From IMG/VR virus record IMGVR_UViG_2706794665_000004: a stretch of DNA of 4,853 bases, one strand, 5' to 3'. Each line of letters opens with the position of its first letter. Within the stretch, counting starts at the first letter, position 1. Both the position numbers and the translations under genes were made by a program. Source of the DNA: a virus (Duplodnaviria; Heunggongvirae; Uroviricota; Caudoviricetes). This document shows positions 1-4,853 of this stretch, in pieces. Below the pieces are notes generated by a model, which was not told the origin of the DNA, ran no database searches, and saw only the letters and a program-made list of their open reading frames with translations.

Positions 1-152
1 GACAAAGTCATCGGGCATTATCTGAACATAAAACACTATCAATAAGTTGGAGTCATTACCAAAAAAACCGCCGAAACGGGTTAAGTGCGGGTGCGTTGAG
101 GATGCCTGACACATCAAAGGTGGCGGGAGATTACTCTCCCGCCTGGTCACTC

Positions 153-308
153 TTACTCTCTAGATTCGTAGTCTACGAAAACAGCGACCTCCGTCTGGCC
201 GATTCGGATTCGTACCTCGCAGAGGTCTTTCCTCGTTACCAGTGCCGTCACAATGACGGTTAAACAGATGACGATCAGGGCGATTAACATCGCCTTTTGC
301 TGCTTCAT
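153..308 (-). CDS. hok: Hok/Gef-family type I toxin, 51 aa (MKQQKAMLIALIVICLTVIVTALVTRKDLCEVRIRIGQTEVAVFVDYESRE)
   Basis: Internal ATG at 306-308 of the 70-aa ORF, preceded by AAGGAG about 9 nt upstream. Single transmembrane helix, conserved RKDLCE and GQTEVA motifs, TAA stop at 153-155. From memory the first ~35 residues match E. coli HokD/HokC and the C-terminus diverges; not verified by search. Confidence 0.85.
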   Translation of the reverse strand: MKQQKAMLIALIVICLTVIVTALVTRKDLCEVRIRIGQTEVAVFVDYESRE

Positions 309-365
309 AGCCTGCTTCTCCTTGCCTTTCGGCACGTAAGAGGCTAACCTACATTTGTGAGACAT
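153..365 (-). CDS. mok: Mok-like leader ORF, in-frame 19-codon N-terminal extension of hok (MSHKCRLASYVPKGKEKQA + Hok)
   Basis: ATG at 363-365 opens the same frame as hok. The 70-aa product resembles, from memory, chromosomal MokC (basic leader ...KVKEKRAM fused in frame to Hok). Hok/sok biology: mok translation is needed for hok translation. Only a weak GAGG lies upstream. Confidence 0.45.
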   Translation of the reverse strand: MSHKCRLASYVPKGKEKQAMKQQKAMLIALIVICLTVIVTALVTRKDLCEVRIRIGQTEVAVFVDYESRE

Positions 366-415
366 AGATTGGGCCTCAGATTAATGTTAAGCGTCTTGCA
401 GGACGCGTAATGTTA
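357..415 (+). ncRNA. Putative Sok-like antisense RNA complementary to the mok start region (position inferred by analogy, ends not defined)
   Basis: By analogy with hok/sok loci the antitoxin RNA lies antisense across the mok start. Candidate promoter on + strand by eye: TTGCCT 322-327, 17-bp spacer, TAACCT 345-350. Small hairpin GCGTC/GACGC at 391-406, but no clear U-tract terminator. Confidence 0.2.
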
Positions 416-646
416 ACTGGGGCTTTTCTCTGTCTGCCTTACAGTGACATACCCGAGGCAGACAGCCTCAAGCACCCGCAGCAATCTTACCGACACCGAT
501 AAGAAAACGCTATTTTTTATTGCCAGCACCATCTATCCAGGCTAGTTTATCTGCGTCAGAACGGCGCAATGCGCTCGCCTGAGATACGTTTACTTGCCAT
601 GGTAACAACAGGTAACGGCAATTGCTGTTTCTGTTTTGTTTCCTTC

Positions 647-762: not shown

Positions 763-1128
763 TCATTGATTCACCTCCTGCGGTGGTTCCGGTAGCGGCA
801 TCCAGTGAGTTGAGCTCTCTACTTCAACGCCGTCTTTGTCCACAAAAGCCATCTTATTCCCGCCACGAGTGGGGCAAAAAACCTTATCCCAGGAACCGGG
901 GAATACATTCCCGAGATCATCGAGAAGAATCACATCGCAATATTCAGCAGGAACTGCATCACTACAGCTTATCCAGCCAGCCGGAGCTACCGGAGAGTTG
1001 CCAGCCTTACGCATGGCCATTTCCACGATTTCAACCATATCTCCTGGTGGAATTTTACAAAGTTGCCCAATACATTTCTGCTGCCTGGCATATTCGAGAA
1101 TGTGCTCCAGTTTGGTTCGATTAATCAT
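763..1128 (-). CDS. DUF551-like phage protein, 121 aa
   Basis: ATG at 1126-1128 with GGGAGA Shine-Dalgarno upstream; its start overlaps the TAA stop of the upstream gene (TAATG). C-terminal motif ...GWIS...THWMPLPEPP is as I recall for DUF551 family phage proteins. TGA stop at 763-765. Confidence 0.75.
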   Translation of the reverse strand: MINRTKLEHILEYARQQKCIGQLCKIPPGDMVEIVEMAMRKAGNSPVAPAGWISCSDAVPAEYCDVILLDDLGNVFPGSWDKVFCPTRGGNKMAFVDKDGVEVESSTHWMPLPEPPQEVNQ

Positions 1129-1793
1129 TATTTATCTCCCTTAAGCATGGCAGCGCGGCAGGCGTTCCAGCCATCAACATAATCAAACGTATTACTATCG
1201 TTTGGCCCGATTTCATCCGGCACTATCGGCTCTGGTTGGATAGTGACGTTGGCAAAGGCAGCACGCAAACCGGTTTTAATTTCTTCGATTTCATCAGAGC
1301 CAAGCGATGAATCTGACAGTGCGTGATGGAATGCGTAAGCCATGTCGTCGTTTACTGCAACCGGCACTGCCGGCGCTGCGTAAAGCGGTGTTATATCTGC
1401 CCGAAAATCACATGCTTTATGCAGTCGTACCCAACACTCAACTTCCGCTTTGTCAAAATATATAGCAGTGAACGTATTAGATTCCTGGTCAACTTGAGTA
1501 AACGTCACCTTCCACGCTACAGCTACGGCTTTCCATCCATCAGGTTGTCGCATTCGCGGGGCAGCATAAAGCTCATGCATTCCATCAGGCAGCGAGTGAC
1601 CCACATACTCACCGAACCCGTCAATACACATGCCCCCATCTTCAACAATGCATTCCGCTACAGGCTCTGCTTCCAGTGATGCCAGAGCGATAAGCGCCAG
1701 TTCACGAATTTCACCGCCGTCTATATCGTCAATATCATCGCGGCCAGAAATGTTAGCCAGCCATTGCAGTCGCTCTTTGGTAATAGTGGTCAT
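1128..1793 (-). CDS. Hypothetical acidic phage protein, 221 aa
   Basis: ATG at 1791-1793 overlaps the HNH gene stop (ATGA), with GAAGGGG Shine-Dalgarno upstream. By hand count about 39 Asp/Glu versus 17 Lys/Arg. Internal repeat of an L-Y-A-A-P motif (HELYAAPRM and ITPLYAAPAV). No family recognised. Confidence 0.75.
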   Translation of the reverse strand: MTTITKERLQWLANISGRDDIDDIDGGEIRELALIALASLEAEPVAECIVEDGGMCIDGFGEYVGHSLPDGMHELYAAPRMRQPDGWKAVAVAWKVTFTQVDQESNTFTAIYFDKAEVECWVRLHKACDFRADITPLYAAPAVPVAVNDDMAYAFHHALSDSSLGSDEIEEIKTGLRAAFANVTIQPEPIVPDEIGPNDSNTFDYVDGWNACRAAMLKGDK

Positions 1794-2155
1794 GCCGTAG
1801 CCCCTTCTTGATATTTTTCAAACCAGAACACAACCGGGTCAGATTTCATTTCAACCAATCCCATACGAACCAGCGCTTTGCCTTTCCCGGACGCAAGGAA
1901 TTCACGACGACCATCACTGATAATTCGTCGATAATCTTCCAGGCTACTGCAATGCTTGTGCAGATTGCATGGGTGGCATGCTGGTACCATGTTGGATATA
2001 TCGTCACGTTCCTGGTGAAGCATATTTCCATCAAAACGAATGACCGGTTTTACATGGTCTGCATGCCACTTTTCGCCAAGTTCGCAGCCGCAATAAGCGC
2101 AGCGACCACCGAACTTCATGCGCAGTTCTGCACGTTGTTTTTTCGTCAGTGCCAT
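1790..2155 (-). CDS. HNH (His-Me finger) endonuclease, 121 aa
   Basis: Motifs CAYCGC (CxxC), WHADHVKP (catalytic His), NMVPACHPCNLHK (second CxxC plus Asn/His), the classic zinc-binding HNH arrangement. Start placed at the internal ATG 2153-2155, which has AAGGAAAG upstream; the 30-codon extension to 2245 has no motif support. Confidence 0.88.
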   Translation of the reverse strand: MALTKKQRAELRMKFGGRCAYCGCELGEKWHADHVKPVIRFDGNMLHQERDDISNMVPACHPCNLHKHCSSLEDYRRIISDGRREFLASGKGKALVRMGLVEMKSDPVVFWFEKYQEGATA

Positions 2156-2156
2156 A

Positions 2157-2375
2157 TCAGCTTTCCTTATACGGATTAATTTTATTGTGCAGTGTGTTGA
2201 ATGACGCCCATACCACGTCGTTATACAATTCAATAACTGGCTCAATTATTTTTCCGATTATCCAGACAAAAATTAGCGGGGATATCGGTGTCATCAACAC
2301 GATAAACAGAATGAGAAACAGGAATTCTGTTGTTCTACTCTTTCGCGGATATTTTTTTCTAAATAATGTAACCAT
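2157..2375 (-). CDS. Possible small membrane protein, 72 aa (MVTLFRKKYPRKSRTTEFLFLILFIVLMTPISPLIFVWIIGKII...)
   Basis: ORF with a basic N-terminus followed by one strongly hydrophobic transmembrane-like segment. Its TGA stop (2157-2159) lies 1 nt from the HNH ATG, consistent with translational coupling. Against it: AT-rich with rare codons, weak Shine-Dalgarno partly buried in a hairpin; could be noncoding. Confidence 0.3.
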   Translation of the reverse strand: MVTLFRKKYPRKSRTTEFLFLILFIVLMTPISPLIFVWIIGKIIEPVIELYNDVVWASFNTLHNKINPYKES

Positions 2376-2380
2376 TCATT

Positions 2381-2398
2381 ACCGCCCTTTCGGGCGGT
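2381..2398 (-). terminator. GC-rich hairpin with GAAA tetraloop (ACCGCCC-GAAA-GGGCGGT on minus strand), possible partial terminator or attenuator between replication genes and the HNH cassette
   Basis: Perfect 7-bp stem and 4-nt loop seen directly in sequence. The downstream minus-strand sequence AAUGAAUGGUUACAUUAUUU is only moderately U-rich, so function as an intrinsic terminator is uncertain. Confidence 0.3.
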
Positions 2399-2467
2399 CT
2401 CCTGATGATTTGAGGGTGCAGAAATCCCTCCGGTTAAGGATTAAATTTTTAACAGTGCTAAATTTAA

Positions 2468-2881
2468 TTATTCAGTTCTGGATTTTGTCGCCCTGCGTAT
2501 CCGCGCTTTCGCGTTACGCTCAATCTGTATCAGCTTTTCTATATTTCTCCGCCTTTCCTGTTCCTCCTGGCGCAATAGCCTTACATCATCTGCCAGTCTG
2601 GTTTCTCTTTTTGCCACAGAGAGCATCCAGTCAAACGGCTCCACAACCGCACCGCAGATTTTACAGCGGACCTGACGCTCTTTTTCGTCAACCCGGACAG
2701 AGGCGTGATGGCAATATGGTCTTTCCGATGGTTCATAAAGAAAATTAACCTGATTACGTGGGTCATCCTCTTTTACCGGAAATAAAACGATATTGCTTAA
2801 CTCATCTTGGTGATGCTGCCAACTTACTGATTTAGTGTATGATGGTGTTTTTGAGGTGCGAAGCCTGATAGCTAATTTCAT
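2468..2881 (-). CDS. Hypothetical phage protein with putative zinc-ribbon (C-H-H ... CxxC) and basic coiled-coil C-terminus, 137 aa
   Basis: ATG at 2879-2881 immediately follows the TGA of the upstream gene (TGAATG), with AGGAGG 11 nt upstream. Motif PYCHHASVRVDEKERQVRCKICG. TAA stop at 2468-2470. Confidence 0.7.
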   Translation of the reverse strand: MKLAIRLRTSKTPSYTKSVSWQHHQDELSNIVLFPVKEDDPRNQVNFLYEPSERPYCHHASVRVDEKERQVRCKICGAVVEPFDWMLSVAKRETRLADDVRLLRQEEQERRRNIEKLIQIERNAKARIRRATKSRTE

Positions 2882-3304
2882 TCACAGTATCGCCTCCTGA
2901 AAATTACCCTGATAGAAAGCCAGTACACGCTGCATAGCTTCGCTCTTCCGGCACTCGCGACAGATTATATTCAGGCGCCTGTCGTAGCGGCGTATTTCTC
3001 CGTCAGGTAATGACCAGATAAGGTCCGGATCAACAACAACCGGTTTCCTCACCTTTACTCTCGAGAGTTTTTTGCGGGCGCTTTGCCAGTCCTTGCGAGC
3101 CTGTTCAGACGGGAATAAGCCGTAGCCAGAATTATATACATCACCACTTGCGACCAGTTCTATGCATAAGCGACCGACAGACGCACGACTGATACCTGTT
3201 TCATCTGACAACTGCCGAATCGTGACCCGACCGTCCTGATGCACGAGTTCCACAATTCGCGTCTTCAGTTCTTCCCGCTGTTCGGGAGTAAAAGGTTTCG
3301 CCAT
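2882..3304 (-). CDS. Winged-helix/HTH DNA-binding protein, 140 aa
   Basis: ATG at 3302-3304 with strong AGGAGG Shine-Dalgarno (3309-3314 on + strand). HTH-like segment TIRQLSDETGISRASVGRLCIELVASG. Located directly downstream of the DnaC-like gene. Confidence 0.78.
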   Translation of the reverse strand: MAKPFTPEQREELKTRIVELVHQDGRVTIRQLSDETGISRASVGRLCIELVASGDVYNSGYGLFPSEQARKDWQSARKKLSRVKVRKPVVVDPDLIWSLPDGEIRRYDRRLNIICRECRKSEAMQRVLAFYQGNFQEAIL

Positions 3305-3318
3305 AAATCCTCCTGAAA

Positions 3319-4065
3319 CTACTTAACAACCCTCGAATGGCTAACATTCGGACGCCAGCTCTCCCAGTTAAAATTCACCCAGCGCCCGCCGTTCATGACC
3401 ATGCGATCCATCACCCGCTCGCCGAGCAATGTTTTCATCACCTCATAGTTCAGGTTTGTCAGCATCCCCACGCTGCGCATCGACGCTGTCCGGCGATCAA
3501 CAATCTGGTGCAGCACCACCTGCTCGTTTTTCGTCTCGCGCTGAATGCCAATTTCATCAAGAACCAGCAGATCCACTTCGCACAGCTCCCGCAAAAATTT
3601 TTCGCCTGACTGCCCGTCGTCATAGCTGGCGTGCAGGGCGCTCATAACATCAGCCACGGTAACCACAATCACTGTCTGACCGTCTTTCAGCAGGCGATTC
3701 CCGATAGCTGCCGCTAAGTGATTCTTCCCGGTACCAGGTTTTCCGCTGAACGCAAAATTTGTACACCCGGTCATCAGTTCATCGGCGATGGATTTCGCCT
3801 GGCTTAACGCGTATCGCTGGCCGTCGTTCTGCACCTGGTAATTCGCAAACGAGCATTTACGGTGCAACGGCTGGATGCCTGAGCGATTCAGAATTTTTTC
3901 CACCCGCAACTGGCGATTCAGGCGGTTGATCTCCTCGCTACGTTTCTGGCCTTCAGCAAGTTGCCACTCGCGCCACTCCGCTACCGTTCTGAATGGGGCG
4001 GTTACATGTGGCGGGGTCAGTCGGCGGATGCGTTCCAGAACGCCGCCTGTCGCAATATTTTTCAT
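3319..4065 (-). CDS. ydaV: Prophage DnaC-family AAA+ helicase loader / replication protein (YdaV-like), 248 aa
   Basis: Walker A motif GKPGTGKNHL, Walker B-like DLLVLDEIG, overall DnaC/IstB-like architecture. N-terminus MKNIATGGVLERIRRL resembles Rac prophage YdaV as I recall it; symbol is by similarity, not verified. ATG 4063-4065, TAG stop 3319-3321. Confidence 0.9.
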   Translation of the reverse strand: MKNIATGGVLERIRRLTPPHVTAPFRTVAEWREWQLAEGQKRSEEINRLNRQLRVEKILNRSGIQPLHRKCSFANYQVQNDGQRYALSQAKSIADELMTGCTNFAFSGKPGTGKNHLAAAIGNRLLKDGQTVIVVTVADVMSALHASYDDGQSGEKFLRELCEVDLLVLDEIGIQRETKNEQVVLHQIVDRRTASMRSVGMLTNLNYEVMKTLLGERVMDRMVMNGGRWVNFNWESWRPNVSHSRVVK

Positions 4066-4071
4066 GGTCCG

Positions 4072-4748
4072 TTACCCCCTGAAGCCTGGCGGGATCGCAC
4101 TGTCCGGCAACGAGACGGTGTTAACCTGTCGGAGCAACGTCTCAGGCCGAACACCTTTCGGCGCGAACAGGCCCTGGTATTCATTGGCGATGCTGTGTCG
4201 AATCACCTGCTCAGGTGTAAAACCCTGCTGACGGAATTTTTCCAGTTCCCGTATCGCCCCGTTAGCGCCCTGCTCCGTTCGAATCGGTTTTCGCAATGCC
4301 TGTCTGAACCGGACCCACTCATGCCAGAGTGTTTCCGGCAACCAATCGGGCAGCTCAATAGCCTCCGGCTCGAATTTTTTAGACGCTCGTTTTTGGCGAG
4401 GGGGAGATCAGTATTTAGATCTTCCTCTTCCTCTTCCTCTGGTAACGCTTTTTGATCCGTTTGTGTAACGCTGGCAGCGTTACCTTTTCGTTTCAGTTCG
4501 CGTATTTTTGTTACTCGCTCGTTTGTAACCGCCCGTTTTTTTTAGAGCTTTTTCCGTTATGACGTTCAAAGTTAGGTAGAGAAAGCCCTCCGTCATTTTC
4601 GACCAGCCATCCAACCTGAATTAACGCATCAGCAAAACCAGACATAAAAGTGATGCGATCTATTGCACTTTTTGTAACGCCGCGAGCGTTACAATCTGCA
4701 TTACCGTCTATCATTTGTTGATCCGCCCATGCCCAGAAGCGAATAACC
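4072..4748 (-). pseudogene. Disrupted ydaU-like (DUF1376-type) replication-initiator gene: 5' end truncated by IS insertion and split over three reading frames
   Basis: Three consecutive stop-free minus-strand frames tile the region: 4748-4514, about 4541-4380, and 4407-4075. The switches fall at an A8 run (4536-4543) and an A6 run (4375-4380) on the coding strand. Position immediately upstream of the DnaC-like gene matches the ydaU-ydaV arrangement in Rac. The 87-aa ORF's apparent GTG start (4772-4774) lies inside the IS terminal repeat. Confidence 0.6.
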
Positions 4749-4853
4749 TGAGGTAGCCTGAGTTTAACGGACACTCCTTCCTGAAATAGAATGGCATCAG
4801 AAGGAGCTAATAATGAGCAGAAAAACCCAACGTTACTCTAAAGAGTTCAAAGC
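4749..4853 (+). mobile_element. Left end of an IS3-family insertion sequence (IS600-like), continuing beyond the window
   Basis: Terminus begins TGAGGTAGCCTGAG at 4749 (IS3-family ends start with TG). AAGGAG at 4801-4806 and orfA ATG at 4813, about 64 nt from the end, as typical for the family. Assignment to IS600 is from memory of its end sequence and OrfA N-terminus. Confidence 0.8.
4813..4853 (+). CDS. IS3-family transposase OrfA, N-terminal fragment (MSRKTQRYSKEFK...), runs off window
   Basis: ATG at 4813 with AAGGAG 6 nt upstream. N-terminal sequence has the basic, KEFK-containing start typical of IS3-family OrfA HTH proteins. Confidence 0.8.
   Translation, partial: MSRKTQRYSKEFK

Follow-up and report, generated by a model that had tools for sequence, protein, structure and literature searches.

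A 72-codon open reading frame upstream of a prophage HNH endonuclease gene belongs to the DUF4014 family of predicted membrane proteins and is under purifying selection

Introduction

Small phage proteins that alter O-antigen exist, among them the Gnarl proteins (PMC12373910), and a review states that phage epsilon15 has been suggested to code for two inhibitors of AT3 acetyltransferase function that are uninvestigated (PMC9558356). The 60-residue epsilon15 gp28 carries the name 'serotype conversion: transacetylase repressor', and epsilon15 gp22 and Iap of Pseudomonas phage D3 are small phage membrane inhibitors of alpha-polymerase. The genes for these O-antigen inhibitors adjoin int or tailspike genes, and their products act in lysogens. 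Hok is another small, prophage-borne protein with a single transmembrane (TM) helix, and is accompanied by the sok antisense RNA. Two arrangements of phage genes also bear on the locus described here. Free-standing HNH homing-endonuclease genes occur as presence/absence cassettes with exact boundaries at gene junctions, and genes 38 and 25 of phage T4 have hairpin-bridged, or 'split', ribosome-binding sites.

The DUF4014 family comprises phage proteins of about 72 residues. Its named phage members are L0067 of 933W, H0077 of VT2-Sakai, gp46 of epsilon15, gp27 (gene 27) of epsilon34, gp23 (gene 23) of g341c, gp39 of ES18, HK225_057 and an ORF of D6. The public names of these proteins are contradictory and unreferenced, some records giving 'acetyltransferase inhibitor' and others 'released from the phage upon host infection'. 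The epsilon34 genome paper notes that its genes 25-28 are similar to epsilon15 genes 45-48 and says nothing more, and the paper on the Phi24B exo-xis region treats that region as a whole. A literature search under the family identifiers and legacy names found no experiment on any DUF4014 protein.

Here we analyze a 72-codon open reading frame (ORF) in a 4,853-nt stretch of Caudoviricetes DNA (IMG/VR record IMGVR_UViG_2706794665_000004; hereafter the window). A sequence-only reading had described it as an unannotated small membrane-protein gene translationally coupled to an HNH endonuclease gene, perhaps a toxin, abortive-infection effector or superinfection-exclusion factor, and had allowed that it might equally be noncoding leader sequence. 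We find that the ORF is a catalogued DUF4014 gene maintained by selection on its protein product, and our comparison of loci suggests that its link with the HNH gene is incidental.

Results

A catalogued phage accessory gene

The ORF begins with the ATG at 2375 and translates as MVTLFRKKYPRKSRTTEFLFLILFIVLMTPISPLIFVWIIGKIIEPVIELYNDVVWASFNTLHNKINPYKES (Table 1). Both the basic N-terminal string and the hydrophobic string quoted in the sequence-only reading occur in this translation, and the hydrophobic stretch is 27 residues long. The AT-rich composition and rare codons reported there are also borne out: GC content is 35.6%, against 45-55% in the adjoining genes, and 8 of the 72 codons are rare (11%; AGA twice, ATA three times, and one each of CGA, CTA and GGA), against 4-6% in most neighbors.

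Against Pfam DUF4014 (PF13198; gathering threshold 23.2 bits) the protein scores 90 bits (E 1.3e-25), with residues 1-71 aligned to model positions 1-71 of 72, and against PHROG 1832 it scores 151 bits (E 1.5e-44, 1-71 of 72). It carries every invariant column of the family, whose hallmarks are a length of about 72 residues, a basic N-terminus with YPR-x-SR, P-x-x-P within the TM segment and a C-terminal HNK-x-NPY. A search of NCBIfam returned no family matching the protein.

Annotation status is not decidable from the window alone and was judged by database comparison. The identical protein, WP_000256997.1, is annotated in E. coli FDAARGOS_944 as a RefSeq 'DUF4014 family protein' with the same bounds, and its gene ends 1 nt before an annotated HNH endonuclease. 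By megablast, the 219-nt sequence is present in 1012 of 5426 complete E. coli genomes (~19%), with at most 6 copies per genome. When 40 records were taken at even spacing down the ranking of the 1021 E. coli records with a match, the feature under the match was 'DUF4014 family protein' in 40 of 40. The ORF is therefore neither unannotated nor, as had been supposed of such genes, routinely missed by gene callers; it is, with near certainty, an already catalogued DUF4014 / PHROG 1832 phage accessory gene.

DUF4014 is a narrow family: among 1.84 billion representatives, an exhaustive profile search yielded only 25 clusters, several of which are fragments or fusions, and a scan of contigs returned just two loci, with E. 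coli and Shigella flexneri representatives, that added no diversity. DUF4014 was found in all 933W-type Stx phages examined.

Table 1. Positions of the features discussed, numbered from the first letter of the window; all lie on the minus strand
Feature	Position	Strand	Basis or remark
DnaC-like loader	3319-4065	-	
DUF977/Ren-like gene	2882-3304	-	
PHROG 1621 ORF	2468-2881	-	
Conserved 5' boundary element	2376..2430	-	exact hairpin match, MFE fold, conservation
Hairpin GAGGG-N9-CCCTC	2412-2430	-	part of 5' boundary element
Shine-Dalgarno (SD)-like AGGAG	2399-2403	-	part of 5' boundary element
GC hairpin CCGCCC-GAAA-GGGCGG	2382-2397	-	followed by 6 nt, then ATG
DUF4014-family CDS	2157..2375	-	72 codons plus TGA; ORF list, Pfam, PHROG, RefSeq, dN/dS
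Hydrophobic TM segment FLFLILFIVLMTPISPLIFVWIIGKII, codons 18-44	2244..2324	-	Kyte-Doolittle, AlphaFold; invariant P30 and P33 (PISP kink)
C-terminal helix and tail, codons 45-72	2160..2243	-	most constrained part; invariant E45, E49, Y51, F59, L62-HNK-x-NPY69
AAGGAA, codons K70-E71, SD for the following gene (HNH in the window)	2163..2168	-	sequence, codon fixation
TGA-T-ATG stop/start junction DUF4014/HNH, 1-nt spacer	2153..2159	-	sequence
HNH endonuclease CDS	1790..2155	-	Pfam HNH, PHROG 2118; presence/absence cassette at the junction of DUF4014 and the 'MTTIT...' gene
221-aa ORF	1128-1793	-	
DUF551 gene	763-1128	-	
hok	153-365	-	

Selection acts on the encoded protein

We compared 89 copies of the 72-codon stretch, from the window and 88 fetched loci. 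They comprise 50 distinct DNA alleles, 48 of which are intact at exactly 72 codons; the remaining two have had the 5' end cut by insertions. For the annotated frame, pooled Nei-Gojobori estimates over 45 E. coli-type alleles give a dN/dS of 0.19; no other frame is as low (range 0.30-2.8 over the remaining five), and variable sites are distributed 19/15/37 over the three codon positions. By segment, dN/dS is 0.23 in the N-terminus, 0.24 in the TM segment and 0.089 in the C-terminal 28 residues. Only 0.34% of shuffles of the 219 nt keep a stop-free frame, which, together with purifying selection in frame, places the ORF beyond chance.

Salmonella-phage homologs at 46-51% identity extend this pattern to a distance at which synonymous sites are saturated (pS about 0.7-0.76): they retain 72 codons, zero indels and 23 invariant residues, including K7, Y9-P10-R11, R14, E17, P30, P33, E45, E49, Y51, F59 and L62-H-N-K-x-N-P-Y69. 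The invariant I/L-N-P-Y codons vary synonymously (ATTAATCCGTAT / ATCAACCCATAT / TTAAATCCGTAC), so that what is conserved there is the protein. PISP and HNKINPYRE are kept even in P0141, a distant homolog of 68 residues. The ORF is protein-coding and under purifying selection, most strongly on its C-terminal 28 residues, and we regard its identity and coding status as near-certain. Two checks put forward with the sequence-only reading came out in the gene's favor: synonymous and nonsynonymous changes reveal purifying selection, and a search for copies broken while HNH is conserved turned up just rare decayed or IS-disrupted ones.

As a separate observation, the protein database holds rare frameshifted or truncated DUF4014 variants, as expected of decaying prophages.

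A predicted N-in/C-out membrane protein

The Kyte-Doolittle 19-residue maximum is 2.68, and net charge is +5 over residues 1-17 and -2 over residues 45-72; the family means are +4.0 at the N-terminus and -1.3 at the C-terminus. A hydrophobic helix of at least 19 residues with positive-inside charge asymmetry is thus predicted, as in bitopic proteins. AlphaFold, run on a 26-sequence alignment, predicts two helices, 14-28 and 32-66, with residues 29-31 breaking the run at the PISP motif (mean pLDDT 83; 86-96 across the hydrophobic segment). These predictions agree with the earlier view of a small membrane-protein gene. The positive-inside rule is an established guide to membrane orientation, and the charge distribution makes N-in/C-out in the inner membrane the likeliest topology, which would place the most constrained part of the protein in the periplasm. 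Alternatively, the conserved PISP motif could mark a re-entrant hairpin with both ends cytoplasmic.

Foldseek returned no PDB match for the AlphaFold model, and a sequence-profile search of the PDB gave just chance matches to TM helices; a two-helix peptide model of this kind carries no fold information. Two other classes of small membrane or exported protein were considered and rejected. No family member contains a Cys and there is no AxA-type site past the h-region, so that neither a lipoprotein nor a cleavable signal peptide fits, and the gene lies outside any lysis cassette, which tells against a holin.

A packed gene junction with an inserted HNH cassette

At the 3' end, the TGA (2159-2157) is followed by a single T (2156) and the HNH ATG (2155-2153), and AAGGAA sits 8 nt 5' of that ATG. 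The arrangement described from the sequence, a stop 1 nt before the HNH start and an HNH SD inside the last codons, is thus correct. The gap from the DUF4014 stop to the next gene is 1 nt in all E. coli-type loci and 3 nt in epsilon15, g341c and HK225; at a distant metagenomic locus, L090, the next gene overlaps DUF4014 by GTGA (4 nt). In the 48 intact alleles, position K70 is encoded by AAG (45) or AGG (3) but in no case by AAA, the codon used nearly always for K7, K42 and K65. Codons K/R70-E71 probably carry a dual constraint, from the protein and from the downstream SD.

The gene behind this junction varies. At least six unrelated families occur directly downstream of DUF4014, and HNH follows in 38 of 87 loci, equivalent to 5 of 24 distinct junction sequences. 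In g341c and HK225 an HNH homolog lies upstream instead, with a 4-nt overlap with the DUF4014 start. Loci that lack HNH read ...AAGGAAAGCTGAT directly followed by ATGACCACTATTACC. Precisely between the two, the window carries an insert of 362 nt (2155-1794), which ends ...ACGGC immediately before ATGACCACTATTACC, and the HNH stop overlaps the next ATG. The HNH gene thus behaves as a separate mobile cassette placed into a pre-existing coupled junction. The proposed translational coupling to HNH divides accordingly. The arrangement for coupling stands, as junction and embedded SD are both present and conserved, and a specific functional pairing with HNH does not, as the same junction precedes at least six unrelated genes and HNH is an insertable cassette. 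The link between the two genes appears to be incidental, a product of the generic packing of phage genes.

A hairpin element at the start of the gene

Across DUF4014 loci the gene starts in one of two ways: it is coupled directly to the upstream gene (...AAAGGAGAGTGAT and then the start codon), or it is preceded by a hairpin element. The window has the latter. The element has the consensus GAGGG-N9-CCCTC, CAGGAG(G/A), CCGCCC-GAAA-GGGCGG, 6 nt, ATG, and is conserved 5' of DUF4014 in loci with gaps of 32-143 nt. Its GC hairpin is exact in the window, where 0.01 matches are expected by chance, and is present in the MFE fold. In related loci it also stands before other genes, with 6-9 nt to the ATG in every case, and is therefore a portable block-start or boundary element that is not specific to DUF4014.

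The sole good SD for the ORF lies 23 nt from the ATG, beyond the GC hairpin. We infer a hairpin-bridged SD, in which the GC hairpin would bring AGGAG near the ATG. Of the hairpin variants across loci, two are G-U-compatible, one alters the loop but preserves GNRA, and two are disruptive; no compensatory pair was seen. Equally well, the element may be a hairpin for RNA stability or processing, or a recombination 'linker' where mosaic blocks meet. An intrinsic terminator was rejected for the GC hairpin: neither strand has a U-tract after it, and a terminator scan found none.

Placement in delayed-early accessory regions

The gene order of the window is typical of the early-right region of a lambdoid or Rac-like prophage. 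In 933W, DUF4014 lies in the exo-xis region between orf61-like genes and xis/int; in the P22-like phage g341c it lies in the ea region; in HK225, epsilon15 and the window it follows the replication genes; in the P1-like phage D6 it is part of an imported ea-like block; and in L090 it follows recET-like genes. In every case it lies, co-oriented, within a delayed-early accessory region (exo-xis, ea or post-replication nin-like), frequently beside Ead/Ea22-like and DUF551 proteins. DUF4014 travels as a 72-codon unit across several temperate enterobacterial phage lineages.

A crude consensus scan of the minus strand from 1700 to 3000 found no sigma-70-like promoter or intrinsic terminator. The ORF therefore lacks the promoter and terminator of its own that characterize a prophage 'moron', and it is packed with a 1-nt gap in most loci. 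Its delayed-early placement implies expression on infection or induction and not in the lysogen. An antisense promoter inside the ORF was also considered; the plus-strand match at 2201-2229 is within chance expectation and was discarded.

The window itself is a decayed, IS-riddled prophage segment. It carries an IS1 end at 1-60 and a solo IS1 terminal repeat of ~50 nt at ~2809-2858; the upstream ORF takes its first codons from this repeat, which is also a breakpoint with respect to the closest relative. An IS3-family end from ~4748 cuts short a YdaU-like gene. In this remnant the DUF4014 gene may be silent.

Discussion

Our best overall explanation, which we consider probable if well short of assured, is that the window carries an ordinary, catalogued DUF4014 gene for a small membrane protein, whose likeliest role would be to modulate a protein of the host envelope from an N-in/C-out position. 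The mechanism itself, in which a small bitopic inner-membrane protein would bind some envelope or membrane protein of the host during lytic development, is a tentative suggestion on which we would not insist. The protein would be made only when the early operon is transcribed, on infection or induction, and would insert N-in/C-out in the inner membrane; its kinked helix and conserved tail would then bind a host integral-membrane or periplasmic envelope protein stoichiometrically, and this binding would change the envelope during lytic growth. Following the legacy name 'acetyltransferase inhibitor', O-antigen/ECA acyltransferases are a putative target class. A bolder version would make DUF4014 proteins widespread single-pass membrane 'plug' peptides, produced early in lytic growth, that bind a polytopic enzyme of the host envelope and inhibit it (AT3-type O-antigen/ECA acetyltransferases being the one candidate, and a weak one) and are distant kin of epsilon15 gp28. 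This is a long shot; if true, such small-protein inhibitors, at work on an enzyme within the membrane, would form a new class.

The legacy name, taken at its word, makes DUF4014 proteins membrane inhibitors of host O-polysaccharide (AT3-family) acetyltransferases that aid surface conversion, a reading descended from epsilon15 gp46 that we judge unlikely yet worth keeping in sight. The g341c and HK225 records carry the name, derived from NP_848254.1 (the g341c gene 23 record reads similar to 'acetyltransferase inhibitor protein epsilon15p46'), several NCBI proteins are called 'sugar acetyltransferase inhibitor', and both the remark on two proposed epsilon15 AT3 inhibitors (PMC9558356) and the precedent of the Gnarl proteins (PMC12373910) are in its favor. 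So is a weak similarity of the N-terminus and TM segment to gp28: the DUF4014 profile aligns to it with an hhalign probability of 66% (E 5.8e-5; BLASTP E 0.016), a marginal score in a TM segment where composition inflates scores, so we treat the resemblance as a lead and not as evidence of homology. DUF4014 showed no similarity to epsilon15 gp22. Against the name, our literature search found no experimental basis for the label, which RefSeq has since replaced, and the supplements of the Gnarl accessory-gene screen do not contain a DUF4014 sequence. Moreover, the gene occupies lytic early operons without a lysogenic promoter, unlike conversion genes, and it occurs in phages isolated on rough K-12-type hosts (HK225, D6) as well as in Stx phages of O157, none of which offers an obvious O-antigen acetylase as a target.

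Other readings fit the locus less well. A small single-pass membrane protein beside a nuclease invites the idea of a toxin, abortive-infection effector or superinfection-exclusion factor forming a two-gene module with HNH, and a sizeable minority of loci do have HNH next to DUF4014, on its downstream or its upstream side; the HNH also has weak PADLOC matches to PtuB-like HNH proteins. DUF4014 itself matched no PADLOC family at E <= 0.1, and HNH, a precise insertion, is next to it in just 38 of 87 loci, with at least five other families at the same junction. Pfam detects no Hok/Gef domain on the ORF, and the sole Rfam match in the window is sok at 303-477 (118 bits), so neither the toxin domain nor the cis antisense RNA of a type I toxin was found; nor was a promoter or terminator of the gene's own. 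Expression in the lysogen is not expected of N/Q-dependent early operons, and persistence intact in ~19% of E. coli genomes, at up to 6 copies each, speaks against a potent toxin. Early placement, the absence of a defense-model match and this persistence together argue against a lysogen-expressed exclusion factor or potent toxin, and we consider the proposal improbable. The chance is slimmer still that DUF4014 is a virion-associated ejection protein, as the product name 'released from the phage upon host infection' on the epsilon15 gp46, Min27, Stx2 II, P27 and other records and on PHROG 1832 would have it. The gene is always among early (recombination, replication or ea) genes and never in a structural module; where late placement would be expected, early regions house it in 6 of 6 annotated phages or contigs examined. 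The 933W-like Stx phages, P22-like phages, epsilon15, HK225 and the P1-like D6 have quite different virion types, and a shared ejection protein across at least five such lineages is unlikely, which argues against the label; the literature search found no paper in its support. Finally, an AT-rich region with 11% rare codons and a conserved stop/start junction with embedded SD might suggest a noncoding leader, or a 'delivery' uORF that feeds ribosomes downstream and whose peptide sequence is irrelevant. Selection analysis effectively refutes this, leaving it next to no credence: dN/dS is lowest in the annotated frame (0.19 overall, 0.09 in the tail), the invariant I/L-N-P-Y codons change synonymously, 23 residues are invariant at ~50% identity without indels, and the Pfam match reaches 90 bits.

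As a discovery, the ORF matters little, since Pfam, PHROGs and RefSeq already contain the gene. The family matters more: DUF4014 is a selected, conserved membrane protein without a published function, although it is present in major Shiga-toxin phages and in about one-fifth of complete E. coli genomes. Knowing what it acts on would put the annotation of thousands of prophage genes in order. The locus is also a clean example of lambdoid accessory-gene chaining, in which the last codons of each gene supply the SD for the next, and it shows a portable SD-plus-hairpin element at block starts and an HNH cassette slotted into a stop/start junction.

Compared with the systems introduced above, DUF4014 differs from Hok, with which it shares small size, a single TM helix and carriage by prophages, in lacking a comparable RNA regulator and any sequence similarity; Hok has the sok antisense RNA and its own Pfam domain. 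The likeness to free-standing HNH homing endonucleases concerns the neighboring HNH ORF and not the DUF4014 gene: the HNH of the window is likewise a cassette, present or absent, that fits a gene junction exactly, its homing is putative, and in different phages it lies on either side of DUF4014. At the 5' end, the element resembles the T4 gene 38 and 25 sites: its SD stands about 23 nt off the ATG, and the stable hairpin predicted between the two would restore normal spacing. The hairpin keeps its distance of 6-9 nt to the ATG before different genes.

With gp28 and the other small phage inhibitors of O-antigen enzymes (gp22, Iap), DUF4014 has in common its size, its phage origin and a TM helix behind a basic N-terminus; with gp28 it also shares a weak PRKS-x3-E-x-LF motif similarity, though gp28 differs in having two hydrophobic segments and no HNKxNPY tail. 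All three inhibitor genes are set apart from DUF4014 by their place beside int or tailspike genes and their action in lysogens, DUF4014 being found in lytic early operons. The closest relatives are the other members of DUF4014 / PHROG 1832, with which the protein of the window has in common a full-length match, 72 residues, PISP and HNKxNPY motifs and an early-operon setting. To the common Stx-phage allele it is 93% identical, with a few differences in N-terminal and TM residues and nothing of substance between them.

Forms and composition of the DUF4014 gene

The DUF4014 domain is found fused to other sequence as well as free-standing. In addition to the fusion encoded by the P1-like phage D6, the DUF4014-containing forms include a 271-aa Ead/Ea22-like fusion (P0135) and a 142-aa protein with the C-terminal half only (P0138), and the match of the DUF4014 protein to PHROG 8930 is limited to residues 39-71. 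The ORF at window 2157-2375 has a GC content of 35.6%, well below every neighbouring gene (45-55%), and 11% rare codons. This points either to a separate evolutionary origin or to an effect of the Phe, Ile, Leu, Lys and Asn content on composition.

Mosaic surroundings of the DUF4014 gene

The HNH cassette comprises 362 nt inserted exactly at a TGAT/ATG junction, with DUF4014 on one side and the 'MTTIT...' gene on the other, and in phages g341c and HK225 an HNH homologue is located on the opposite side of DUF4014. The HNH gene looks like a free-standing homing endonuclease. Upstream of DUF4014, the boundary element consists of a GAGGG-N9-CCCTC hairpin, an SD-like CAGGAG and a GC hairpin (CCGCCC-GAAA-GGGCGG), followed after 6-9 nt by ATG. 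Elements of this type precede several unrelated accessory genes and may serve as a hairpin-bridged ribosome-binding site, a mosaic-junction linker, or both.

The repeat within the PHROG 1621 ORF, which we take to be a solo IS1 terminal inverted repeat, matches a many-copy repeat of E. coli genomes (median 10 places per genome) and lies just where the window breaks away from L001, the closest relative. The first ~23 codons of that ORF come from the repeat, which gives it a chimeric N-terminus. The left edge of the window is presumably formed by an IS1 end of the other type. At the right edge, the IS3-family end, which is probably IS600-like, is multi-copy among E. coli genomes, carries the annotation 'transposase' and cuts the YdaU-like replication gene short. 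The YdaU-family gene is split into two ORFs, with a (TCCTCT)-rich stretch at about window 4427-4446 between them; in L001, YdaU is likewise annotated as two partial pseudogene pieces. The hok/sok locus combines a Hok/Gef domain ORF bearing an upstream mok-like extension (window 153-365, minus strand) with a sok antisense RNA (window 303-477; Rfam RF01794, 118 bits).

Features of the window and of related phages
Feature	Source	Position	Strand	Remarks
Complete hok/sok type I toxin-antitoxin locus	window	153-477	-	Hok/Gef domain ORF and sok RNA
HNH endonuclease gene	window	1790-2155	-	presence/absence cassette
Portable boundary element, ~55 nt	window	2376-2430	-	also in L043, L045, L047, L048, L051, L067, L078, L087 (homologous loci)
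Presumed solo IS1 terminal inverted repeat, ~50 nt (GGTGATGCTGCCAACTTACTGATTTAGTG...)	window	~2809-2858		inside ORF 2468-2881 (-)
Presumed IS1 end, other type (reverse complement of GGTAATGACTCCAACTTATTGATAGTG...)	window	1-60		left edge
IS3-family element end	window	~4748-4853	+	ORF begins MSRKTQRYSKEFK
YdaU-family (replication O-like) gene, two ORFs	window	4072-4774	-	ORFs 4072-4341 and 4511-4774
DUF4014 fusion, 151-aa ORF	L091 (D6)	2495-2950
gp28 'transacetylase repressor'	L006 (epsilon15)	28344-28526	-	annotation
gp46, DUF4014	L006 (epsilon15)	38035-38253	+	family membership

Relation to epsilon15 proteins

Epsilon15 gp28 and gp46 weakly resemble each other in a PR(K/Q)S-x3-E-x-LF motif and in the TM segment, with an hhalign probability of 66%. 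The resemblance may be the reason for gp46's old name, 'acetyltransferase inhibitor'.
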